From Candidatus Zambryskibacteria bacterium RIFOXYC1_FULL_39_10 (GTDB lineage: Bacteria > Patescibacteriota > Minisyncoccia > Phycocordibacterales > WO2-35-19), in assembly GCA_001824275.1 (NCBI GenBank), contig MHWW01000003.1, forward strand, positions 19,325-83,324: a DNA stretch of 64,000 nt, in the 5' to 3' direction. Both the position numbers and the translations under genes were made by a program. Positions within the stretch are counted from its first letter, which is position 1. Every line of letters begins with the position of its first letter. The notes beneath the pieces are model-generated. The model was not told the origin of the DNA, did not search any database, and was given only the letters and a program-made list of their open reading frames with translations. Below, piece after piece: positions 1 to 31,532 of the stretch.

Positions 1-1210
1 GTCTCCTCTTTTTTGTTTTATCCGAGATTTTCTTGACCACATGAAGCGGATAAAACTGATAATAATCTTTTTCATCAAACCAAGCGCAAACAAAATTGAA
101 TATTCGCAGTCCCGTGAGGCGTGACATAGCGAGTGCATACCATGTCAGCTGTTCAATTGGTTTTTCCTTACTAGCATTTGGTTTGTAATCAAGTAGATGT
201 ATTTGGCCGTTCCTGATTTGTACTATATCTATATGCCCGGTCAACAATTTCGGTAAATCAATCTCTTTACCACCTTTAAGCGTTATTTTTTTGTTATCGC
301 TTATTTTAAATTTTAATACATTTTCCATATGCTCCACATCTTCTCTCCTTATATACACCGGCACTTCGGTCGCGACTGTGCAAGAGTCGTTGGCAAGCAT
401 AAATCTTTGTAAATGTTCGTGACGCTCTTTGTTATCAGGAATTGATTGCAAGACGAACGCAGTCAAACGGTTGGCATAATTGAATTTTGAATTAACGATC
501 ATATCAGCCTTATCAAATTTACTGCGGATTTCTGACATTCTTTCACCATCTTGAAAATATTGATGGGGTGTTTCGCTAGAGACATTATCCAAATAACTTT
601 TGAGCGGTGATAAAACTCTATTTTTAAATTCATCCAACATCAAAATTGTTTTGGCTCGGTGGTAGCGGAAACGATAAAGCTGACGATGAGCCATAGTGGT
701 CACTTCAACGACATCTTTTGGGCCAAACATTTTAATCGCATAAGGCCGCAGTCTTTCATATCGGCAAAGTTCTTTGTATTCGTTTATCCAGTCTGATAGC
801 GTTGCTGGCTCCGGTGCTACGCCAAACTTTTGTTTTATAATTTTGCAAGTTTCTTCCAGTGTTAGCCCGAGATTATAATAACTCATTGATTCAATAATAA
901 TATGAAGTGGAAAATGTTTACCTTTTATATCCTGAGCTGTAAATGTCCTGCCACAACCAAAATTTCGGCAAAGATACAACTGCACTACCTGATTTTTATT
1001 TTTTCGGGTTCCTCTTTTAACAAAATTGGTTGACATACAATATGGACAAATTGAGGCATCACGAGCATTGCGAATTGTTTCTGTTTCTTCTCCTTTTTTA
1101 ACCTCACCCCCGTCCCCTCTCCTAGATGCAGGAGAGGGGGGAACAAAAATCCCCGTGATTTTGTCCCACATTTTTGTTATGCCGTTTTTTTGTGTTTTTT
1201 CGCTTGACAT
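1..1210 (-). CDS. Zn-ribbon + HTH protein with C-terminal PD-(D/E)xK-like nuclease motif; partial (3' end beyond window start); start uncertain (ATG at 1210, 1172 or 1036)
   Basis: A long open minus-strand frame runs off the window edge, which is why it is absent from the complete-ORF track. My translation contains a CPYC-x22-CRNFGC zinc ribbon resembling transposase-type Zn ribbons (IS1/IS1595-like), followed by an HTH-like segment. Further in is GHIDIV...IHLLDYK, which fits a PD...(D/E)xK core. The N-terminus MSSEKTQK is encoded by the 47-bp repeat shared with the next gene. Confidence 0.45.
   Translation of the reverse strand, partial: MSSEKTQKNGITKMWDKITGIFVPPSPASRRGDGGEVKKGEETETIRNARDASICPYCMSTNFVKRGTRKNKNQVVQLYLCRNFGCGRTFTAQDIKGKHFPLHIIIESMSYYNLGLTLEETCKIIKQKFGVAPEPATLSDWINEYKELCRYERLRPYAIKMFGPKDVVEVTTMAHRQLYRFRYHRAKTILMLDEFKNRVLSPLKSYLDNVSSETPHQYFQDGERMSEIRSKFDKADMIVNSKFNYANRLTAFVLQSIPDNKERHEHLQRFMLANDSCTVATEVPVYIRREDVEHMENVLKFKISDNKKITLKGGKEIDLPKLLTGHIDIVQIRNGQIHLLDYKPNASKEKPIEQLTWYALAMSRLTGLRIFNFVCAWFDEKDYYQFYPLHVVKKISDKTKKRR
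1104..1139. repeat. C-rich REP-like hairpin element (a): cacccccgt CCCCTCTCCT agatgc AGGAGAGGGG
   Basis: Perfect 10-bp inverted repeat preceded by a C5 tract. Same architecture as the elements at 2570-2606 and 24538-24573. Confidence 0.45.
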
Positions 1211-1231
1211 TGTGTTTTGATTTGCTATACT
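1184..1231 (+). repeat. 47-bp direct repeat, copy 1. Plus strand: TTGACA-16nt-TATACT sigma70-like promoter. Minus strand: encodes the MSSEKTQK N-terminal leader
   Basis: Identical to 1707-1753 (ttgtgttttttcgcttgacattgtgttttgatttgctatact). TTGACA is at 1204-1209 and TATACT at 1226-1231. Confidence 0.8.
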
Positions 1232-1292
1232 TAATTTATATTTGGGGTTACCCACGACTCCTGTCAGAAATGACAGGAGGTCTATTTTTTTC
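1204..1292 (+). promoter_or_regulatory. mini transcription unit 1: consensus promoter, then hairpin CCTGTCAgaaaTGACAGG, then T-run; antisense to the 3' end of the MazF-like gene
   Basis: -35 TTGACA and -10 TATACT with a 16-nt spacer. A 7-bp stem hairpin at 1261-1278 is followed by tctattttttt. Confidence 0.4.
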
Positions 1293-1757
1293 AGCAATAT
1301 TATGTAATTTAAAATACATATCTCTTATTATTTTTGAATCCTTCTCATCCAATTCTCCTATTTTTTCTTTGAATCTCCTATAGTCATAAACCCTTCCCTG
1401 AGATAAAACAACATTTTGATTAATCCCAATAAAAGTTATCGGAGCAAACCATGACCCAGTTTTTGGTTTAGTAGTAAGTGGTAATCCCAAAAAAGAATAT
1501 TTGTCATATTTTTTAAATACAAAAACCGGTCGAGTAAATTTTTGATCTTTACCATTTATTTCAACCCCAACATTTTCTCCAATATAAGACCACCATATTT
1601 CATTCTCTTTAAATAACGGCGGCAAAGATTCGTTGTTATGAATTTTCTCTTTCAAACCAATCCACGCCAAAAATCTTTTAATTATATTTTTTGGTTTTTG
1701 CATATTCTTTTGTGTTTTTTCGCTTGACATTGTGTTTTGATTTGCTATACTCATCAT
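1248..1757 (-). CDS. MazF/PemK-family toxin-like endoribonuclease with N-terminal extension (probable start at the in-frame ATG at 1730)
   Basis: Translation ENEIWW..GENVG.E..GK...RPVFVF...PLTTK......VVLSQGRVYDYRRF.EKIGELDEKD follows the Kid/PemK/MazF pattern (IWwv.lgp..G.E..k.RPvlV...v.PlTs.....q.R..D..Rl....g.l). The upstream GGAGGTG is 17 nt from ATGATG, so the SD and start choice are ambiguous. Confidence 0.6.
   Translation of the reverse strand: MMSIANQNTMSSEKTQKNMQKPKNIIKRFLAWIGLKEKIHNNESLPPLFKENEIWWSYIGENVGVEINGKDQKFTRPVFVFKKYDKYSFLGLPLTTKPKTGSWFAPITFIGINQNVVLSQGRVYDYRRFKEKIGELDEKDSKIIRDMYFKLHNIAEKNRPPVISDRSRG
1707..1753 (+). repeat. 47-bp direct repeat, copy 2 (same promoter-like motif; encodes the leader of the MazF-like gene)
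   Basis: Exact copy of 1184-1231. TTGACA is at 1724-1729 and TATACT at 1746-1751. Confidence 0.8.
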
Positions 1758-1810
1758 GTATCTTTAATGAATTACACCTCCTAAGGTTCTGTACTTAGGC
1801 GGTGTTTTTT
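1724..1810 (+). promoter_or_regulatory. mini transcription unit 2: same promoter, then hairpin CCTAAGgttctgtaCTTAGG, then T-run; antisense to the MazF-like 5' UTR/SD and the NYN 3' end
   Basis: Promoter at 1724-1751; hairpin at 1780-1799; cggtgttttttact follows. Confidence 0.4.
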
Positions 1811-2431
1811 ACTATTCACAGCCCCTCTTGACAAAGAATTTCTATCGTCTATAATGGATAGCACTGATATTCTCCCGGCCGCAAGGTCGGGAGTATTATT
1901 TTTCCTATTTAATTCGACAAATTCTCTTATCTTTTCAAGAATTAAATACTTTGTTTTCTTTAGTTCAAAAGCCAAATTACCCTTAAAACTAACGAAACGG
2001 ATATTTTTGTGCTGTTCTATAAAAACATATTTCCATAATTCAAAATAATCGCTATCTCCGCTGAAAACCATTACCTCATCCAAATTATTAAGACTTCTTA
2101 CAACATCTAAAGTTATTTCTATATCAACATTTCCTTTTTTCTGTCCATTTATATATTTAAGAGGCTTGGTTATCACTTTGGCAAATTTTTCTATAACATC
2201 AAGGTATTTCTTTGAATCGGCATAAGATGTATCGGTTTTTTCAGGTAAGGCGGCATAATAATTGAAAATCTTAACTTCAAAAATAGACCCAAAAAGTTTT
2301 TTCACTTTTTCTATGTCCAATTTCCAACCGGCTTTTTTAGACGCATAATATATATTGGCTCCATCAATAAATATTCCTATTTTCTTTTTTGCTCTATTGT
2401 TTTCCATTTTATTTTTGATGTCTCGTATCAC
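1781..2431 (-). CDS. NYN/LabA-like domain protein (PIN-like RNase fold)
   Basis: KKIGIFIDGANIYYA......VFSGDSDYFEL matches NYN (DUF88/LabA) signature residues. The ~50-aa C-terminal tail overlaps the plus-strand promoter/hairpin unit 3. Confidence 0.65.
   Translation of the reverse strand: MIRDIKNKMENNRAKKKIGIFIDGANIYYASKKAGWKLDIEKVKKLFGSIFEVKIFNYYAALPEKTDTSYADSKKYLDVIEKFAKVITKPLKYINGQKKGNVDIEITLDVVRSLNNLDEVMVFSGDSDYFELWKYVFIEQHKNIRFVSFKGNLAFELKKTKYLILEKIREFVELNRKNNTPDLAAGRISVLSIIDDRNSLSRGAVNSKKHRLSTEP
1828..1906 (+). promoter_or_regulatory. mini transcription unit 3: TTGACA-16nt-TATAAT, then hairpin CTCCCGGCCgcaagGGTCGGGAG, then T-run; antisense to the NYN gene 3' region
   Basis: TTGACA at 1828-1833 and TATAAT at 1850-1855. 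A 9-bp stem (one G-U pair) at 1872-1894 is followed by tattatttttcc. Confidence 0.4.
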
Positions 2432-2569
2432 GACTTGACCTACTCAAAATCTCACGCTTTTCGGATATTTTGGCACTTTCCGTGCTATTCGTGATATTTT
2501 ATTTGGCATTTTTGTTGACATTTGTCAAATAATTTTGCCCCAAAGGGTCATCCTCAAATTTCTTATTTC

Positions 2570-2606
2570 CTAACTCCCCCTGCCCCCTCTTAAATTAAGA
2601 GGGGGT
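2570..2606. repeat. C-rich REP-like hairpin element (b): ctccccctg CCCCCTCTTAA a TTAAGAGGGGG, overlapping the giant gene stop codon
   Basis: Perfect 11+1+11 palindrome at 2584-2606, preceded by a C-rich tract. Confidence 0.5.
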
Positions 2607-5600
2607 TTCAGATGTCCCAGTACCGATATTGACATCTGTTGAAACTGTTTCCGATGCCGAAATTATTTCTGCTGGCGGAGTTACAATTTCTACTACCGGT
2701 TCAGCTGGCGCAGAAATTATTTCTACAACTGGTGGAATTATTATTACACTTTCAGAAGTTGTGCTTGCTGTTATTATTTCTGGTGTTGAGCTCCCCACTG
2801 CCGACGTTGCCTCTCCGTTGAGTTCATTCCCCATTACCGAAATTGTTGTCGTTGTTGTCGTTGTTTCTGATGTCGAAGTGGCTTGCGTTGTAACCCCGGC
2901 AACTTCGGGAGCGGAACGAATCAATTCTTTAAACTGCTCTTTGGTCACACAGACATCATCTACACAAACTTCTCCTTCAATATGCAAACTGCCCACAAAC
3001 AATTTTGTAATCTTAGTGAACTCATCCCCTATTTCCACCCCGACACCCTTTAAATAGACCACAATTCGCCCTAGGAGCGTTTCTTTACCATCCACGGCAA
3101 TGGTAGTCGTAGCGGACACATCATTCTCCAAATCTGCCATTTTTGCATTCAAAATTTCAAATTTAATTTCGCTATTACTTAAAAATTCAGCGGTTGAAGA
3201 AGCATACATTTCCTGTACCGATTTCACTTCCGCGATTTGTTTTTGTTGCTCTTGAATGGCGTTTACTAAAATAGGTGTGAGCTTACCATAGTCCACATTT
3301 GATGGTCGACCCTGTGCATCAAAACTAACTATCTCTGGAATTATTTTTGCCACATCTTCCGCAATAAATCCGACCTGTGAAGTTTGGTTATTGGGCATAA
3401 AACTTTCTTGCCAGTTGTAGGAAACCGGCTGGAGCTGTGCAATTTCGACCAAACCATAATTTAATGGGTTAACATTTTTCTTGAAACGGAGCGATGAACC
3501 TCCGCATTGAGTAGTTGAAGTCGCCAAGTTTCCTGTGGTCGTATTTGCACAAACAAAGTAGCCAGTGGACTCGTTGACGAGTGCCGGAAACATCACAGAA
3601 CCATTTACGGCTAATTTTGCACCAGGACTCGTCGTCCCGATGCCGACGTTGCCACTTCCTAATAATGTCAACACTGACCTTTGCACCGTTTCGCCATAAT
3701 TAACACGAAAATCTATAGAGTTGTTTGCCACACCTGAAGCATGATTTGTATATATACTATGATAATAAGTATCTGGGAAAGATGTTCTCGATAATCGCAA
3801 TACTTCTGCAAACGTGGCGTCTGCCCCACCATTTTCAATCGTAGTTATACCTTTAACATGCAACTTACTCACCGGTCCCGTCGTCCCGATGCCGACGTTG
3901 CCTAGTAAATAATTATTTCCAGTCCCATCTGACTTTAGTAAACCGTCGATTTGCAAATTACCGGATAAATCAACATATCCTTTTTCTCCTCCTAAATTGA
4001 ATGTTATATAGCTATCGGCATATAATTTAAGTTTGTTTGCTTCAGTGCCAGCAATATACGTTCCCGCATCAGTTGTATAATCAGGGTAGAATATTCCTCC
4101 ACCCCTAATATTTCCCGCCACATCCAGTAATGCCCCCGGACTCGTCGTCCCGATGCCGACGTTGCCAGCACTTGTTATTCTCACCTTTTCCGTTGGGACA
4201 CCACTATTAGAAGTATTGAAGATTAAATCGCTGTAATTTCCTCCTCCAATACTTTGCAATGCTTGTATCGAAGCAACTTCCTGATTGGTTAATGTTGAAT
4301 ATGAATTTCTAAAGTGTATACCGCCAATCTCATAGCCGTTCCCTGCCGGAAAAGCACTGATTGTCAACTGAACCGGTGTTGAAGCCGCACTACTTGAAAG
4401 ATGCAATTTACTCTGCGGACTCGTCGTCCCGATGCCGACGTTGCCACTATCTGTTACTAACACATTTGCCGTGCTCCCCGCAGCATTTACAAAAGCCAGA
4501 CCAGTGCTTCCAAGAGTGGAATACCCGATATATCCCTTAGATGTTCCTGCGTTTTTAAACTGTATAAACGCAGAACTCGCAGCAGCTGTGTCTTCAACAA
4601 TAACAGGCGTATTAGCTGCACCAGAAATATGTAACAATGCCCCCGGACTCGTCGTCCCGATGCCGATATTACCGGCGCTTGCAATGAACATTCTATTATC
4701 AACTCCTCCAGAACGAAATCCGATAGCACCACCACTTTCATAGAATCCACCCGTATCAGCACCATTACCACCAAACACTCCGAAATTAGTTTTGAAACGA
4801 ATACCCCCATTCACATCCAACTTCGCTCCTGGACTGCTTGTCCCAATTCCCACATTCCCGGAATTTTGTTGGACGATGAATTGTGAAGTACCGACAGCGA
4901 AGCCACCGGTTGAGATGGTGGAGGTTGCTGTAGTTGAAGTCGCATTGAAATTACCAAATGTTGGAGTGGAGGTAGCAACAATGACACCTGATGCGTTAGT
5001 AGAAAGTAGTGAATTGATTGCAAGACCAGAGAAAGTGAGGGAACCACCTGTAGTGATGTTTCCATTGTAATCAATTGTGAATTTAGAAGTTGAAGCAACT
5101 TTGAGATCTAATAGATTACCAGTGAAGCCAGTGATTGCATCTGCTCCTATGAGTGTTCCGGTTGAACCTACCACTGATAGTTTTGCCCATGGGGATGTAG
5201 TGCCTATCCCGACGTTGCCGGTCTGTTTTACATACAACAAGCTATTACTCGACTCATTCTCAACATTAAAATAACCAGAGGCTCCTGAAATTGTAGATTT
5301 GACATATCTCGAGTCAGATTGCAATGCTCCAATTTCAAAAACTTGTTTCAAGGCATTCCCACTCATAACATCAAAAGTGAAGGCACTTTCCATACTGCCC
5401 GTATTGACATCATTGGCAACCCAACTCATTCTATTAGATTCTCTTACATCATTAGCGGAATCGAGGTAGAAAGAGACATATGCCTCATCACCAGCAGTTG
5501 GTGTGGCTCGTTCATTTCCCTGCAACACCACAACAAGATTACTCGCAGCATCAGTAGTCTTACTAATATCAAGCAAAGCTCTCGGACTCGTCGTCCCGAT

Positions 5601-8600
5601 GCCGACGTTGCCACCAAGAGTTGCGAAGTAGGCAGAACCTGTGGAGGTGATAGCAGTAGTAGAAGCATACCCAAGAGTTGTTAGACCTGATACTGACATT
5701 GTCCCTGTTGCCGTAATGTTCGCTGCTGTGAGATTGCCATTGAAAAATCCGCTACCTGCTACACTCAACAATGCGAAGGGAGAGGTGGTGCCTATGCCGA
5801 CGTTGCCACCGTTCATTATTCTCATTGCCTCTGTCCCAGCTGGTGAAAAAGCAAAGTGATTCGCAGAAGCAGCACTTGAAGCCCAAGTCCACACCGAGCC
5901 AGAATTACTGAATGTGACAGTTGAGACGCCTGTTCTTTCAACAGTAAAGGTTGGTGAGGCCGCTGCAATGTGCAAAATTGATGTCGGACTCGTCGTACCG
6001 ATGCCGACGTTGCCAGTTGCTGCGGCAATTGTTAATCTAGTAGCTCCTACTGGTGCTACGGTATTATCATAAAAAAGAAAATTGTTATTTACGTCATTAA
6101 GCCCAAACGACCAAGTCTGACCGGGTTTATTAACTGAAATTTGACTAAAGCCGGTGTCGGATGCTGTGCTTATTGCAATTTTGGAGTAAAGTGGCCCTGC
6201 TACTTGCAGTAATTCAATCGGCGTCGCCGTCCCAATACCAACTTTTCCTGTTGAGAAGTCATAAACAAACCCTGTACCTCCGATTGCAAATCCTCCAGCA
6301 ATAGTTGAAGTCGCTGCAGTTGAAGTAGCGTTGAAGTTACCAAATGTTGGAGTTGAAGTAGCAACGATGACACCTGATGCGTTAGTAGAAAGAAGAGAAT
6401 TGATTGCGGCACCGGAGAGAGTGAGAGAACCTCCTGTGGTGATTGCTCCAGTGTAATCAATAGTGAATTTAGAAGTTGAAGCGACTTTCAAATCCAAAAG
6501 ATTGCCTGTAAAACCGGTCAGAGCGTCCGTGCCTATGACTGTTCCCGTCGTACTCAAATGTTCCACTGAAAGTTTGGCGTATGGTGAAGTCGTCCCGATG
6601 CCGACGTTGCCGGAACTTAAAATTCTCATCTTTTCACTAAAGGTTCCTGCTAACGTAGTAATGAAAGTAAGGTCTGCACTAACTGCATTAGCTACGTGAG
6701 AAGTAATTGTTGTGCCAATTTGGGTCGCAGGTTTGATGGCACTATTAGCATCAAAAGTATTAAATCGCAAACCTAGCCCGGTATTATCTGTGGTATTTGT
6801 GTTCATTAAATCAAAAACTGGGAAGCTACCGAAAGCAGTCTGAGCACTATTTGTTTGGAACAATCCACCTAAAGTATATTGGCTTGTATCTACTACATTT
6901 AGTTTATAGCTGGGACTGGTCGTCCCGATGCCGACGTTGCCGGCAAAGTAGGAGTTGCCTGTGCCGAGGACACTTAAGTTTTGAGCAATAGTGGTTGAGG
7001 CGTTAATGGTTAAGGTTTGAAGGCTTGGTGTGGCATTAAACATTCCATAAAGTAAAGCTCCTGCTTTATCTCCGCTGGTGTTTTCGCGGTCTTGGTTGTC
7101 TATGTAAAAAGAATTGGAACCAAGTTCGTATGCACCCGCATACATTCCAAACATTACATTACTATTTCCAAATAGATTATATCCTGCTTTATATCCTACG
7201 ACTGTGTTGTATGAATATGGAGTAGACCCACCATAACCAACTTTTGAACCAATAAGAGTATTTTGTATAAAGACACCAGTACCACTAAAACCAGCACCCC
7301 TCCCAATCGCTGTGTTGTCAGAACCTGTGGTGTTCGCATAGAGAGAAGAATCTCCAATCGCTGTGTTGTCGTTTCCTGTGATGTTGGAGTAGAGAGAACC
7401 ATATCCAATCGCTATGTTGGAGTTTCCTGTGGTGTCGGAGTAGAGAGAAAAAGATCCATTCGCTGTGTTGTAGGCTCCTGTGGTGTTGGAGTAGAGAGAA
7501 TGAGATCCATTCGCTGTGTTGGAGTTTCCTGTGGTGTTGGAGAAGAGAGATTGATAGCCATTCGCTGTATTGTAGGAACCTTTCCAAGTAGCACCTACTT
7601 GACCCACACTACTTTGTCCTCCTCCACCAATAAAGAGATTATCACCCTCTGAATTAGCACCTTTGTAAGTAGAGAATAAAGCATTTGTACCATTAGTATT
7701 TATATTTATATTCCCCGCAACATCTAATTTCTGGCTGGGACTGGTCGTCCCGATGCCGACGTTGCCGGCAAAGTAGGAGTTGCCTGTGCCGAGGACACTT
7801 AAGTTTTGAGCAATGGTGGTTGAGGCGTTAATGGTTAAGGTTTGAAGGCTTGGTGTGGCATTAAACATTCCATAAAGTAAAGCTCCTGCTTTATCTCCGT
7901 TGGTGTTTTCGCGGTCTTGGTTGTCTATGTAAAAAGAATTGGAACCGAGTTCATACATTCCTGCACTAGTTCCAAGAGCGACATTGTTTGATCCAGTTTC
8001 GTTTAACATAAGAGATTGCGCACCAATTGCGACATTGCTATCACCCGTAGTATTTAACATGAGAGAAGCCACACCAAAAGCGCTATTGATACCGCCTGTA
8101 GTATTAGACATGAGAGATTTTTCACCATTTGCTGTATTAGAGAAACCTGTAGTGTTGTATTTAAGAGCTCGACTACCTATACCCGTGTTCCAATATCCCG
8201 CATCAACATTATCGGTTGGTTGACTAAAGCCGGCTTGTTTTCCAATATAAAGATTTCCAGCATTATAATTAGCATCATCCGGATCACTCGCAAAGATTCT
8301 CAACATCTCCGTACCCGCCGCATCTTTTATAAAAATGCCGGAATTAGCTGGGGTGTAGTTACCGGGTGAGCCGTTGGTAGTGATAGTTAAAGGTGAGGTA
8401 TTAGAATCTCGGTTATCTATAGTCAGTTTGGCTGAAGGCGTCGTCGTCCCGATGCCGACGTTGCCTGTCGCTCTCCAAACACTTGTACCATCAGTTGTCC
8501 AATTCCCCACACCCGCACCAGCAATCAAAGAACCGTTCCAATAAAGATCACTTGAAGTATTGTAGAGACGGGAATAAGTATCGGCAGGAGAAGACGATTC

Positions 8601-9845
8601 AATATACAAAGCCCCATCTAAAGTCAGAATATCTTGTCGAGTGGTGGTGCCAACGGCCAGCCATTCTGTGGCCGTAAGATCAGCAACTGTCGTTGAACCG
8701 GTGACAGTCAAATCACCAGTCGAAAATGAAAGGCCAATGGCAGTTTGAAAATCAGAAAGGTCATTACTTACATTTGATATGGAATTGCCAAAATTATTTA
8801 CGATCGTGTCATTCTGTCTGGTCACATAATATCTATTTACATTTGGCGCTAACGGATTGACTAGAAAATAATTTTTTAATTCTGCAATTTTAAAATCTAC
8901 ATATTCTCTGTCAGAATCCATCACTACAACTGTTCTAGCTTGCGATGGTGTTTTATTATTTTGATTTATAACTATTTCTTGATTATTTTCTTTGTTAACT
9001 AAAACTGATTCATCTTTCCTCAACCAAGGTTTAATTATTTTAAGAGCAACATTTTTTGTCCAATTAGTTACATCATTCCATCCATTAGCAGAAAAGATAG
9101 AAGCAAAATTATTTTCTCCTAAAGCTACTTTATTATTAATGTTACTAATACCAGATTCAAAAACAAGAGAAGTCTTAACTATTATTCTTTCTTTAAGAGA
9201 AGCTAGTTTTTTAATCTCGGAAAAATTAAAAGCAATGCTAAAAGTCAACAAAATTATGACAGAAATTGAAGCGGCTGAGATTGCAAACTTTTCGAAACCA
9301 GACTTCCTTTTTGATCTCTCAATTACTTCATCAATGTTGGCAGAAGCGTAATATCTAATTTTATCTATATCAAACTCCCTTTTAATAATTGGAAATAATT
9401 CCTTTTTATCGTTATAATATATAGGTTTTATTCCTCTTACATCTCGGATACTCGAGATACGAGGTTTAAGACCTTTTTTCTCTGAAAATATTACTTCATT
9501 TTTATCTATTCCAATTCCTAATTCAAGCTCAGATTTAGCTTTAGATTTTTTCAGTATCTTCGTCTCTTTTTCCTTATTTTTTAAATCTGGTTTTAATGTT
9601 TTTAAGATTGCAACTTCCCTTCTTGATTTACGAATTTTAAGAGTCTTCCTGTGGGTAAGTAAATTTTTATCCTTGTGATTCAAAATTTCACTCTCCAAAA
9701 CATACCAACTTCTACCAACCAAGCTTGCATGAATTTTTTTAGCTCTACAAAGTTGGCCAATGTAGTCACTAGCATAACCAGTAAGTTCAGCGGCACGACT
9801 TGCCGAGATGTATTTTTTACCCTTCAAATAGAGAGTCTTATTCAC
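2595..9845 (-). CDS. giant (2416 aa) tail-fibre-like surface protein. Domains: N-terminal excisionase-type HTH, single TM helix, Gly/Thr/Asn-rich beta-repeat region, C-terminal peptidase S74 intramolecular chaperone (tail-fibre autoprocessing) domain, Thr/Pro-rich tail
   Basis: N-terminus SASRAAELTGYASDYIGQLCRAKKI...GRSWYV is HTH_17-like. The TM helix is FAISAASISVIILLTFSIAFNF at ~aa 190-212. The decapeptide GNVGIGTTSP recurs more than 20 times. C-terminus SSLRFKKNVNPLNYGLVEIAQLQPVSYNWQ...VGFIAEDVAKIIPEIV...VDYGKLTPILVNAIQEQ matches the endosialidase-chaperone/tail-fibre C-terminal domain. Start-codon placement at the 5' end is uncertain. Confidence 0.8.
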   Translation of the reverse strand: MNKTLYLKGKKYISASRAAELTGYASDYIGQLCRAKKIHASLVGRSWYVLESEILNHKDKNLLTHRKTLKIRKSRREVAILKTLKPDLKNKEKETKILKKSKAKSELELGIGIDKNEVIFSEKKGLKPRISSIRDVRGIKPIYYNDKKELFPIIKREFDIDKIRYYASANIDEVIERSKRKSGFEKFAISAASISVIILLTFSIAFNFSEIKKLASLKERIIVKTSLVFESGISNINNKVALGENNFASIFSANGWNDVTNWTKNVALKIIKPWLRKDESVLVNKENNQEIVINQNNKTPSQARTVVVMDSDREYVDFKIAELKNYFLVNPLAPNVNRYYVTRQNDTIVNNFGNSISNVSNDLSDFQTAIGLSFSTGDLTVTGSTTVADLTATEWLAVGTTTRQDILTLDGALYIESSSPADTYSRLYNTSSDLYWNGSLIAGAGVGNWTTDGTSVWRATGNVGIGTTTPSAKLTIDNRDSNTSPLTITTNGSPGNYTPANSGIFIKDAAGTEMLRIFASDPDDANYNAGNLYIGKQAGFSQPTDNVDAGYWNTGIGSRALKYNTTGFSNTANGEKSLMSNTTGGINSAFGVASLMLNTTGDSNVAIGAQSLMLNETGSNNVALGTSAGMYELGSNSFYIDNQDRENTNGDKAGALLYGMFNATPSLQTLTINASTTIAQNLSVLGTGNSYFAGNVGIGTTSPSQKLDVAGNININTNGTNALFSTYKGANSEGDNLFIGGGGQSSVGQVGATWKGSYNTANGYQSLFSNTTGNSNTANGSHSLYSNTTGAYNTANGSFSLYSDTTGNSNIAIGYGSLYSNITGNDNTAIGDSSLYANTTGSDNTAIGRGAGFSGTGVFIQNTLIGSKVGYGGSTPYSYNTVVGYKAGYNLFGNSNVMFGMYAGAYELGSNSFYIDNQDRENTSGDKAGALLYGMFNATPSLQTLTINASTTIAQNLSVLGTGNSYFAGNVGIGTTSPSYKLNVVDTSQYTLGGLFQTNSAQTAFGSFPVFDLMNTNTTDNTGLGLRFNTFDANSAIKPATQIGTTITSHVANAVSADLTFITTLAGTFSEKMRILSSGNVGIGTTSPYAKLSVEHLSTTGTVIGTDALTGFTGNLLDLKVASTSKFTIDYTGAITTGGSLTLSGAAINSLLSTNASGVIVATSTPTFGNFNATSTAATSTIAGGFAIGGTGFVYDFSTGKVGIGTATPIELLQVAGPLYSKIAISTASDTGFSQISVNKPGQTWSFGLNDVNNNFLFYDNTVAPVGATRLTIAAATGNVGIGTTSPTSILHIAAASPTFTVERTGVSTVTFSNSGSVWTWASSAASANHFAFSPAGTEAMRIMNGGNVGIGTTSPFALLSVAGSGFFNGNLTAANITATGTMSVSGLTTLGYASTTAITSTGSAYFATLGGNVGIGTTSPRALLDISKTTDAASNLVVVLQGNERATPTAGDEAYVSFYLDSANDVRESNRMSWVANDVNTGSMESAFTFDVMSGNALKQVFEIGALQSDSRYVKSTISGASGYFNVENESSNSLLYVKQTGNVGIGTTSPWAKLSVVGSTGTLIGADAITGFTGNLLDLKVASTSKFTIDYNGNITTGGSLTFSGLAINSLLSTNASGVIVATSTPTFGNFNATSTTATSTISTGGFAVGTSQFIVQQNSGNVGIGTSSPGAKLDVNGGIRFKTNFGVFGGNGADTGGFYESGGAIGFRSGGVDNRMFIASAGNIGIGTTSPGALLHISGAANTPVIVEDTAAASSAFIQFKNAGTSKGYIGYSTLGSTGLAFVNAAGSTANVLVTDSGNVGIGTTSPQSKLHLSSSAASTPVQLTISAFPAGNGYEIGGIHFRNSYSTLTNQEVASIQALQSIGGGNYSDLIFNTSNSGVPTEKVRITSAGNVGIGTTSPGALLDVAGNIRGGGIFYPDYTTDAGTYIAGTEANKLKLYADSYITFNLGGEKGYVDLSGNLQIDGLLKSDGTGNNYLLGNVGIGTTGPVSKLHVKGITTIENGGADATFAEVLRLSRTSFPDTYYHSIYTNHASGVANNSIDFRVNYGETVQRSVLTLLGSGNVGIGTTSPGAKLAVNGSVMFPALVNESTGYFVCANTTTGNLATSTTQCGGSSLRFKKNVNPLNYGLVEIAQLQPVSYNWQESFMPNNQTSQVGFIAEDVAKIIPEIVSFDAQGRPSNVDYGKLTPILVNAIQEQQKQIAEVKSVQEMYASSTAEFLSNSEIKFEILNAKMADLENDVSATTTIAVDGKETLLGRIVVYLKGVGVEIGDEFTKITKLFVGSLHIEGEVCVDDVCVTKEQFKELIRSAPEVAGVTTQATSTSETTTTTTTISVMGNELNGEATSAVGSSTPEIITASTTSESVIIIPPVVEIISAPAEPVVEIVTPPAEIISASETVSTDVNIGTGTSETPS
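6911..7137. repeat. ~230-bp near-identical duplicate (copy A) within the giant gene
   Basis: About 98% identical to 7734-7960. Both encode ...YELGSNSFYIDNQDRENT.GDKAGALLYGMFNATPSLQTLTINASTTIAQNLSVLGTGNSYFAGNVGIGTTSPS. Confidence 0.8.
7303..7610. repeat. intragenic tandem repeat, 51-bp period x6 (17-aa units NTANGSxSLYSNTTGxx) inside the giant gene
   Basis: ccaatcgctgtgttg... recurs at 7303, 7354, 7405, 7456, 7507 and 7558. Confidence 0.8.
7734..7960. repeat. ~230-bp near-identical duplicate (copy B) within the giant gene
   Basis: See copy A at 6911-7137. A more diverged ~250-bp pair lies at ~4905-5160 and ~6290-6545. Confidence 0.8.
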
Positions 9846-30476: not shown

Positions 30477-31532
30477 TTAAACTAGACTCTCTATCGCTTT
30501 GAGGGCGATGGCCGGATCGAATGGCTTCAATTTAGCCAGACTGATCTCATCCGCTGACCGGATAAAAGGACCCAAGTCGCACGGTTCTTTCAAGGATTGC
30601 GCGCAGCCCAGCTTCACAATCGGAACCTCAGTTAATCCTCCAGACTGAAACAGCAATTGTTTCCCAATTTCTGTCTCCAAAGAAATGGCGGCTCTTCGAG
30701 CGTACGCTGCTGTGTTCAGCATCAAACTGAACCCAGAAATGGTCGCATCACAGAGGACAGCCAGAGCATCTCCCAACTTGCAATCAACTGAAACAATGTG
30801 CTCGCCAAATTGACTAAGCATACCGTTCCAGTAGTCTGCCCACTTCAAGCCTGGCTCCTTATCGCTCTTAGCGATTGTTGGGTGAGGTCGTGAGATCAGA
30901 CACCAATCTTCGGTAAGTTTCAGGCACTCGATGAGCAACTGAAGCTCAACCGTCATCTCTTGTGGATTGCCTCCGGCAAAGACGATGACCCTGCCAAATT
31001 GAGAACGAAGTTCTTCAACCCTTCTCTCAACTTCATCAGGAATGCTCATTTTTTCAATCACTGTTGGGTTGCCAGCAATTATGACGCGCATGTTGGGATA
31101 TGACATCTCTGCCAATTCCCTGGCATATTCGTCAAGTGTGACGACAACATCAGGCCTTGCCTTGTACAACTGACAACAGCCCCAGTAATCCTCCATGAGA
31201 ACCAGAGGTATTCCGAGAGTATTCGCGGCTTCCCCAAAAATAGATTCTAGACTATCCGGCACACTTCTGGTTGCCACCACCACATCCGGTCTAAACTTCA
31301 CCAAGACCGAATGAGCCTCCACGGAAAAACTTATTTCCTTTTGGTTTTCCGGCCCTTTAAAGACAAGCTTTGCTTTTGAATCGTAGTTGAAAAACCCCGC
31401 TTCTTGGAACCGATCAGCGGCAAGTCCTTCAACGACAATTAGGATTTCGTGACCCCTATCTAGGGCCAATTTTGCAGTAGGAACGGACATTTTAGCCCCA
31501 CCGTTGTCTCGAGAAACAAACAATATTTTCAA
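30477..31532 (-). CDS. GT-B/Rossmann-like protein of unknown function (possibly a PseG-type UDP-sugar hydrolase or glycosyltransferase); ~50% GC
   Basis: N-terminus MKILFVSRDNGGAKMSVPTAKLALDRGHEILIV and C-terminal region RVIVFAGGNP suggest a two-Rossmann GT-B fold. GC is markedly above the flanks. Confidence 0.4.
   Translation of the reverse strand: MKILFVSRDNGGAKMSVPTAKLALDRGHEILIVVEGLAADRFQEAGFFNYDSKAKLVFKGPENQKEISFSVEAHSVLVKFRPDVVVATRSVPDSLESIFGEAANTLGIPLVLMEDYWGCCQLYKARPDVVVTLDEYARELAEMSYPNMRVIIAGNPTVIEKMSIPDEVERRVEELRSQFGRVIVFAGGNPQEMTVELQLLIECLKLTEDWCLISRPHPTIAKSDKEPGLKWADYWNGMLSQFGEHIVSVDCKLGDALAVLCDATISGFSLMLNTAAYARRAAISLETEIGKQLLFQSGGLTEVPIVKLGCAQSLKEPCDLGPFIRSADEISLAKLKPFDPAIALKAIESLV

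Follow-up and report, generated by a model that had tools for sequence, protein, structure and literature searches.

What restrains a MazF-like ribonuclease gene that has no protein antitoxin beside it? The question is posed by one end of a 64-kb stretch of DNA from Candidatus Zambryskibacteria bacterium RIFOXYC1_FULL_39_10 (contig MHWW01000003.1; hereafter the window), in which positions 1-2431, the region studied here, hold three open reading frames (ORFs) on the minus strand: a gene with Zn-ribbon/HTH and PD-(D/E)xK-like features (g1), a solitary MazF/PemK-like gene and an NYN/LabA-like nuclease gene. We propose that the latter two belong to independent modules, each composed of a toxin gene and a small RNA (sRNA) that would serve as its antitoxin. 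Module A would pair the MazF/PemK-fold gene with a convergent sRNA of about 48 nt, and module B the NYN gene with a convergent sRNA of about 40 nt, each RNA being predicted to start from a plus-strand promoter of its own (1204-1231 and 1828-1855, respectively; Table 1). A model that combines type III-like recognition of the toxin by the RNA with a type I-like antisense layer ranks first among the explanations that we considered, and we give it a probability of somewhat more than one half, about 0.55.

When promoter sites were scored by their matches to the -35 and -10 hexamers (out of 12), just four sites on the two strands of the 64 kb reached 11 or more. Three of them are the plus-strand promoters to which a first-pass annotation of this DNA had drawn attention: TTGACA-16-TATACT in units 1 and 2 (11/12 each, both preceded by TG) and TTGACA-16-TATAAT in unit 3 (12/12). 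The fourth (31579-31551, minus strand) lies just upstream of an ORF at 30477..31532, on that ORF's own strand. Behind each of the three unit promoters there is, as had also been claimed, a hairpin followed by a T-run, the one in unit 2 being weaker. Against shuffled sequences, the fold z-scores of the predicted RNAs are -4.4 (RNA 1), -5.7 (RNA 2) and -4.5 (RNA 3), and in all three cases the complement folds less stably. The features of sigma-70-type promoters and intrinsic terminators are present and conserved, and we treat the three units as predicted transcription units. The hairpins are not ordinary terminators of the minus-strand genes, since on that strand an A-run precedes them and no U-run follows.

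The predicted RNA of unit 1, sRNA 1, has a 5' AUAUU lead, a first hairpin, a CG linker, a second hairpin with a GAAA loop, and a U-run, with a fold of -22.3 kcal/mol. The same layout recurs widely. We fetched 80 loci with homologues of the MazF-like protein (43-73% identity) from species-representative genomes, and a scan for a promoter of at least 11/12 with a hairpin and a T-run pointed, in dozens of them, to the antisense strand directly past the gene. With a simple pattern, an sRNA was found behind 84 of 91 MazF-like gene copies, convergent at the 3' end; one of the 84, at locus L015, is a false pattern match, the real copy there having been placed at 1313-1363 by a covariance model built from 15 of the sRNAs. 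That model finds about 80 loci at E<1e-3, and each of its top 80 matches lies antisense to a toxin gene, at that gene's 3' end; its sole match in the window is at 1238-1287 (47.6 bits, E=2e-15). The family RNA, about 48 nt long, runs from 5' A-Y-A-U-U through a hairpin 1 of 4-5 bp, a C-G-R linker and a GC-rich hairpin 2 of 6-10 bp with a tetraloop to a U-rich tail. By this comparison, unit 1 is a member of a predicted sRNA family that is conserved in sequence and structure and was previously undescribed.

The labels of the metagenome-assembled genomes (MAGs) from which the loci come include Saccharibacteria, Zambryski-, Taylor-, Nomura-, Adler-, Kaiser-, Vogel-, Buchanan-, Staskawicz-, Doudna-, Gracili- and Peribacteria. 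Carriers outside the candidate phyla radiation (CPR) among the fetched loci are one Saprospiraceae MAG (L054) and one Hyphomicrobium MAG (L070). Both hold a complete module with a CPR-style promoter (TTGACT-16-TATACT / TACGAT), and they could reflect horizontal transfer or a binning artefact.

The position of the RNA relative to the toxin stop codon differs between subclades. Most simply, in homologues without a C-terminal tail, which are about 130 aa long, the sRNA begins 40-57 nt beyond the toxin stop, which its U-run abuts. In a subclade that includes the window, the stop has been lost and the ORF runs through the sRNA complement, which gives the protein a tail of the form NRPPxISDxSRG. The tail of the window protein, NRPPVISDRSRG, is the translated complement of sRNA 1, and the ORF now ends at a TAA complementary to the UUA of the hairpin 1 loop.

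Selection acts on the sRNA strand of this region. In the alignment fitted to the covariance model, 99.3% of cells are paired, compensatory double changes occur in 11 of 12 pairs, and the covariation score is 0.522, against 0.173 for shuffled alignments and at most 0.058 when the pairing partners are slid. Two pairs of hairpin 1 covary (UA 55 / CG 28; GC 55 / CG 28), and they do so in a plain MAFFT alignment as well (UA 47 / CG 22 and GC 47 / CG 24). Stem 2 has 535 Watson-Crick pairs and 29 G.U pairs as read on the sRNA strand, with only 3 A.C mismatches, which would be G.U pairs on the mRNA strand. GNRA loops occur in 47 of 72 RNAs, and the RNA is more stable than its complement in 55 of the 72. 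Conservation extends to unpaired bases: the UU before stem 1 (99-100%), the UU of the loop (88-91%), and a C (97%) and then a G (92%) after stem 1. Since these unpaired bases and the shape of hairpin 1 exceed what an antisense RNA needs, direct recognition by a protein is favoured.

The promoters of the family are conserved as well. Among 79 distinct loci, 59 have an sRNA promoter of at least 10/12, a score reached by 0.5% of control positions, and 49 have a TG-extended one; the -10 hexamer ends 5-6 nt ahead of the conserved 5' A. The spacers differ between loci while the hexamers are kept; at locus L004, for example, a 78%-identical MazF homologue is faced by a TTGACA-16-TGnTATACT promoter and a hairpin on the antisense strand, with a wholly different spacer. 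On the other strand, the highest-scoring sense promoter ahead of the toxin does not exceed background. By analogy with known systems, a strong RNA promoter together with a weak toxin promoter would give the usual ratio of antitoxin to toxin, and the near-consensus promoter and own terminator of the sRNA would keep it in excess over a weakly transcribed toxin mRNA.

Such promoters could also act through transcription as such, by polymerase collision or by stopping read-through, the short RNA being a by-product of a roadblock or insulator. The near-consensus promoters do point towards the toxin gene, a terminator is lacking on the toxin strand, and the promoters of units 1 and 2 stand back-to-back with the start of the next gene, 21-33 nt away. 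However, a roadblock has no need of a family-specific RNA, and it leaves hairpin 1, the covariation, the conserved unpaired bases, the G.U bias and the GNRA loops unexplained; we consider it an improbable account of the locus.

It might also be asked whether the element works as DNA, with the hairpins at cassette ends serving as recombination sites (attC-like or of a mobile cassette) and the hexamers being incidental. Within a genome the sRNA promoters are homogenised, while they differ between genomes: the window has a 47-nt repeat, and an identical 28-nt promoter occurs in four of the five units of L004 (3677-3704, 4464-4491, 5300-5327 and 7555-7582). Moreover, modules occur in arrays with repeated intergenic sequence at L004, where a module of about 300 nt with the palindrome gtcattcccgcg...cgcgggaatgac lies between cassette-like genes (NYN, MazF, LPD3, NYN, DUF3800), and integrase or transposase genes are near in L004 and L095. 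Against this, while the spacers diverge, conservation covers the -35 and -10 hexamers, the length between them, the TG extension and how far the conserved 5' A lies from the promoter; a U-run follows each hairpin on one strand only, and no integron integrase or conserved recombinase stands beside the modules. The integron-like cassette suggested by the L004 array was accordingly set aside, as the window lacks the 300-nt module, no integrase is conserved and the features are strand-specific; we retain it as the least probable of the explanations, with very little weight.

The gene that unit 1 faces is probably a toxin of the MazF type. As a single sequence its product scores 19.7 bits against PF02452, below the 23.1 cut-off, so that the profile search proposed in the first-pass annotation fell short for PemK. 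Nonetheless, 175 homologues were found, most of which carry a precomputed PF02452 match, and a profile of the family matches EndoA of Bacillus subtilis and MazF of Staphylococcus aureus (E ~2e-3). The best matches in the PDB of its AlphaFold model (pLDDT 81) are all MazF toxins, to E=5e-7 and TMt ~0.7. Because of these three lines of evidence the assignment is firm, and the protein, as modelled, belongs to the PF02452 PemK/MazF family and has the MazF fold, with an extra N-terminal helix at residues 4-22. An invariant R58-P59 in the stretch 'ftrPvlil' aligns to 'VRPVLVI' of EndoA.

No protein partner accompanies this gene. In the window, no MazE/PemI-type ORF (AbrB or RHH) lies beside it, as had been noticed at the outset, and all-against-all clustering of the ORFs within 1.5 kb of the toxin at 81 loci gave no conserved neighbour family, the commonest occurring in 11 of the 81. 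The ORFs upstream of the toxin at these loci are heterogeneous, from 40 to 1314 aa long and on either strand. The pair of gene and sRNA is the sole conserved unit at MazF-like loci. In a phage collection, no homologue was found.

So tight a one-to-one genetic coupling, together with a conserved RNA architecture, would also suit a function unrelated to toxins and antitoxins, in which the sRNA is the cofactor, guide, sensor or substrate of a MazF-like ribonucleoprotein in defence or RNA processing. Analogous associations are those of the DUF3800, drum and skipping-rope type (PMC5737381), and at L004 the DUF3800, LPD3 and NYN genes have units of this kind behind them too. Nevertheless, the modelled MazF fold, with R58-P59 at the 'RP' of EndoA, points to a toxin ribonuclease; occurrence on small plasmids fits an addiction module; and a weak toxin promoter facing a strong RNA promoter is the classic toxin-antitoxin ratio. 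We find such a ribonucleoprotein unlikely.

How, then, would the RNA neutralise its toxin? On the toxin strand no U-run follows the hairpins, and the toxin mRNA should therefore read through, carrying a perfect complement of the sRNA. Since the sRNA gene abuts or overlaps the toxin 3' end, the sRNA would be perfectly complementary to the 3' end of that mRNA. sRNA 1 overlaps the coding sequence from 1248, and in tail-less homologues the complementarity is to the presumed 3' untranslated region alone. Pairing with the translation-initiation region of the toxin was rejected: duplex energies there are -19.7 kcal/mol for cognate and -19.5 kcal/mol for non-cognate pairs (p=0.40), and no cognate-specific duplex energy is seen.

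Convergent antitoxin RNAs that overlap or abut the toxin 3' end are well known from type I systems, namely txpA/RatA and bsrG/SR4 of B. subtilis and RNA I/RNA II of the par locus of pAD1 in Enterococcus faecalis, in which a strong promoter drives the RNA and a weak one the toxin. They are the models for a purely antisense explanation, in which pairing with the toxin mRNA 3' end would lead to RNase III decay or a block of translation, with no recognition of a protein by the RNA. It accounts well for the geometry, as the units are always convergent with the sRNA 3' end abutting or overlapping the stop, and a read-through mRNA without a U-run must hold the full complement; the NYN sRNAs, each a hairpin with a short variable lead, also fit it. 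Complementarity in cis is automatic, yet unpaired positions and hairpin 1 are kept across lineages at 43-100% protein identity. In addition, most of the type I toxins known are small peptides of the membrane, and no cognate-specific pairing was found at the translation-initiation region, a result that is silent on 3' pairing. We therefore hold pure antisense control to be rather unlikely, even if it is the strongest of the competitors. The first-pass annotation, which had likened the region to toxin genes controlled by small antisense RNAs, stands as regards the toxin-like nucleases, the units and the absence of a protein antitoxin, while unit 1 is more than an antisense hairpin.

In the combined model that we prefer, the sRNA of module A would bind the MazF-like dimer directly, as an inhibitor or a pseudo-substrate, in a type III-like manner. 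An extra type I-like layer would probably operate as well, through decay triggered by the RNA duplex or through interference by convergent transcription. In each module, the sRNA would be the RNA antitoxin.

Several points weigh against this model. The covariation counts of the fitted alignment come from an alignment made to the model itself, the covariation of hairpin 1 in the MAFFT alignment being independent of it, and the loci were retrieved by similarity of the toxin. The promoters and terminators are predicted from consensus matches, and toxicity and its neutralisation by the sRNA are what we infer from sequence. A strictly convergent, abutting placement is what antisense action or interference predicts, and a purely protein-binding antitoxin has no need of it. 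A homologue on a Campylobacter coli plasmid is without such an RNA. Lastly, the sRNAs linked to NYN genes share little sequence beyond the hairpin, which makes direct recognition less plausible for module B.

In module B the convergent sRNA is a simpler one. The NYN protein matches PF01936 well above the cut-off (71.5 bits against 24.2, E=1.4e-19) and has a generic NYN match in PADLOC (4e-9), and D15, D95, E97, D118 and D120 are invariant in 23 aligned sequences; by sequence, it belongs to the NYN/LabA nuclease family. As with the MazF-like proteins, alignment reveals tail-less and tail-bearing forms, the tail (NTPDLxxGRxSV...) being the translated sRNA complement. The tail of the window protein, NTPDLAAGRISV..., is the translated complement of sRNA 3, and the tailed ORF covers the sRNA promoter too. 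In L087 and L089 (67% and 78% identity, respectively), the hairpin and an antisense TTGACA-16-TATAAT promoter are kept, and the changes (G.U to A-U, and a GCAA to a GAAA loop) are both favourable on the sRNA strand. In more distant homologues (L090-L095, 40-50% identity), the 3' end is again faced by a convergent promoter with one GC hairpin and a U-run behind it, which brings the sample, still a small one, to eight loci with a convergent sRNA behind an NYN homologue (L087 and L089-L095). The covariance model of the MazF-linked family matches NYN sRNAs elsewhere weakly and in part, by way of the terminator hairpin. In the window it matches neither unit 2 nor unit 3, and we rejected both as members of that family.

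Table 1. Features of the region, in window coordinates. L001 is the same locus in a Rifle groundwater metagenome, where it continues beyond the window edge.
Feature	Position	Strand	Remarks
g1, Zn-ribbon/HTH and PD-(D/E)xK-like gene	2-1171	-	translation; 3' end cut at the window edge; 447 aa in L001 (2470-3813)
47-nt direct repeat, copy 1	1185-1231	+	holds unit 1 promoter
Unit 1 promoter	1204-1231	+	-35 1204-1209; TG-extended -10 1226-1231
sRNA 1 (predicted)	about 1238-1292	+	covariance-model match 1238-1287; overlaps last ~13 codons of the MazF-like gene
sRNA 1, hairpin 1	1243-1254	+	
sRNA 1, hairpin 2	1256-1282	+	core 1258-1279; T-run follows
MazF/PemK-like gene, solitary	1248-1703	-	151 aa from likely ATG 1703; ORF open up to 1757
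47-nt direct repeat, copy 2	1705-1751	+	holds unit 2 promoter
Unit 2 promoter	1724-1751	+	
Unit 2 RNA (predicted)	1758-1810	+	hairpin about 1774-1804, then U6; weaker hairpin and T-run call at 1780-1799
NYN/LabA-like nuclease gene	1781-2407	-	208 aa; alternative start 2431; PF01936 match
Unit 3 promoter	1828-1855	+	inside C-terminal tail of the NYN ORF
sRNA 3 (predicted)	about 1862-1906	+	~40 nt; short lead, GC hairpin with GCAA loop (1872-1893), U-run

Do the modules fall under a known type of toxin-antitoxin system? The search of Rfam 15, RF02913 included, against the three units and the sRNAs of 17 related loci gave nothing at gathering score except tRNAs, and at E<=10 only chance-level matches. 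The sRNA family resembles the Rfam motifs pemK (RF02913), DUF3800-I..XI, drum and skipping-rope in that these are small, structured, often terminator-ended RNAs linked to one protein; the pemK model, for its part, gives no match to the sRNAs. Weinberg et al. (2017; PMC5737381) described RNA motifs that end in a terminator and are genetically tied to one protein family, the function of which was not established. In the literature searched, we found neither an RNA antitoxin for MazF nor a toxin-antitoxin sRNA in CPR bacteria.

The modules resemble type III systems (ToxIN, CptIN, TenpIN) in their proposed logic, with a protein endoribonuclease checked by a small structured RNA that is expected in excess, and with no protein antitoxin. 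ToxN itself shares a Kid/MazF-like fold. However, a type III antitoxin is a tandem repeat array that precedes the toxin on its own strand and is processed by it, whereas the RNAs described here are single-copy, have a promoter and a terminator of their own and converge on the toxin 3' end; no tandem RNA repeat array lies upstream of the toxin, and the toxin falls in PF02452 (PemK/MazF) instead of with ToxN, CptN or TenpN. The complementarity to the toxin mRNA is a type I feature. Type I toxins, on the other hand, are small hydrophobic peptides (usually <60 aa), while those of the modules are a predicted soluble MazF-fold protein of 151 aa (130-150 aa in the family, ribonuclease-like as modelled) and an NYN protein of 208 aa; the RNAs, at ~40-50 nt, are shorter, and the MazF-linked RNA has conserved sequence and structure beyond type I antisense needs. 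With type II MazEF/PemIK the modules share the toxin fold and the Arg-Pro aligned to the 'RP' stretch of EndoA, and they differ in the extra N-terminal helix and in that no MazE/PemI-type gene is found upstream or conserved nearby, the adjacent, co-oriented protein antitoxin gene of type II being absent. Each of types I, II and III has at least one defining feature that the modules lack.

To our knowledge, MazF toxins are textbook type II toxins, always accompanied by a protein antitoxin, and almost nothing is known of regulation and small RNAs in CPR bacteria. It is tempting to propose, as a tentative generalisation to which we give less credence than to the model itself, that solitary MazF and NYN ribonucleases, possibly also DUF3800 and LPD3 proteins, are neutralised by convergent sRNAs of 40-50 nt. 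This would be a distinct toxin-antitoxin architecture, maybe the main one in CPR bacteria, in which the MazF-linked RNA would be a structured pseudo-substrate that binds the toxin, a type I/III hybrid and the first RNA antitoxin for any MazF toxin. If true, a large MazF clade with a private conserved sRNA would add a new mode of MazF control and account for many of the 'orphan' MazF and NYN genes of CPR bacteria. In any case, the comparison yields a new sRNA family that covariation supports strongly, and the same logic may explain other RNA motifs linked to proteins, for example those of DUF3800.

Relatives on plasmids of Campylobacterota bring the hypothesis to cultured bacteria or to Escherichia coli. 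These plasmids carry N-extended MazF homologues (33-37% identity) annotated without an antitoxin. On small plasmids of Helicobacter suis (pSNTW101c_2, L096, with the MazF-like protein WP_006565308), Helicobacter sp. NHP21005 (L099) and Nitratiruptor (L097), a convergent promoter with an extended -10 (TGnTAnAAT) precedes an RNA of 2-3 hairpins that abuts the toxin stop codon, and the two Helicobacter copies of the RNA differ by compensatory changes in the stems. The covariance model gives no match on the RNAs of these three plasmids. In Nitratiruptor, an RHH-like gene of 62 aa starts just past the sRNA promoter.

Units of this general kind are common in the DNA that was fetched. In 647 kb there are 87 promoter-hairpin-T-run units, of which 64 face an ORF 3' end; 51 of the faced ORFs are MazF-like, four are NYN and nine are others, some of them spurious ORFs. 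At L004, DUF3800 (6841-7582) and LPD3 (4794-5327) genes also have convergent promoter-hairpin units. There may be a link between these units and the RNA motifs that are associated with DUF3800 (Weinberg et al. 2017; PMC5737381).

Unit 2 is of a different nature. Its promoter was counted in the first-pass annotation as one of three separate promoters, yet it shares with promoter 1 a 47-nt direct repeat, which is present in two copies 520 nt apart and is the only direct repeat seen there. The unit 2 promoter is divergent from the MazF-like start codon, at a distance of 21 nt. Outside near-identical contigs of its own strain, no homologue of the body of unit 2 was found, and by its sequence the unit looks like a recent local duplicate of the unit 1 promoter region that has come to lie beside a hairpin, between modules A and B. 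Thus, the expectation that the antisense promoters would be conserved in related loci holds for unit 1 and, less strongly, for unit 3, while unit 2 is strain-specific.

The repeat also bears on the start of the MazF-like gene. Homologues begin near MQKPK, at residue 6-14 of the 151-aa form, which points to ATG 1703 as the likely start, and the first 18 codons of the longer ORF (from 1757) are the translated promoter repeat. The GGAGGTG that had been read as its Shine-Dalgarno sequence had to be given up, being 17 nt from ATG 1757 and about 70 nt from 1703, both wrong spacings. Nor did the picture of one three-gene cluster, with each gene shadowed by its own unit, survive: g1 has no unit, the NYN 3' region holds both unit 2 and unit 3, and the modules are independent pairs of gene and sRNA in unrelated contexts.

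g1 is an unrelated conserved neighbour, outside any sRNA module. Its protein scores 28.4 bits against the IS1/IS1595 Zn-ribbon of NCBIfam (cut-off 28) and 20 bits against PF12705 of Pfam (cut-off 22); the GHIDIV...LLDYK motif is present, and PADLOC gives a Cas4-like match (3e-4). Its family is very large and unusually conserved: at least 1704 homologues with 62-90% identity occur across distant CPR lineages, many of them with PF12705. Of the three nuclease genes first claimed, the NYN gene is borne out by PF01936 and the MazF-like gene by its homologues, profile and AlphaFold model; for the third, the Zn-ribbon match is just above its cut-off and the PD-(D/E)xK match of the protein itself below, the nuclease fold being suggested by its homologues. 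Some proteins of the g1 family are fused to Hint/intein or GIY-YIG domains, and the family may represent a core CPR enzyme or else a mobile or homing element. g1 homologues also adjoin MazF-sRNA modules in L024, L045 and L066.

A second MazF-like paralogue (56% identity) follows g1 directly at L001 (3749-4230), just outside the window on its left side, and has a convergent sRNA of its own. That RNA is a variant with three hairpins, the first of which differs in sequence (hairpin 1, GGC-AUUC-GCC); the variant is also seen in L007, L031, L037, L040-L042 and L045. Co-resident MazF-like paralogues have distinct hairpin 1 sequences both there and in L072, which hints at insulation between specific pairs of toxin and RNA. 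On the other side of the modules in the window, an ORF of 2416 aa (2595-9845, minus strand), with many GNVGIGTTSP-type repeats and a Thr/Ser-rich C-terminal region, probably encodes a giant surface or fibre protein.

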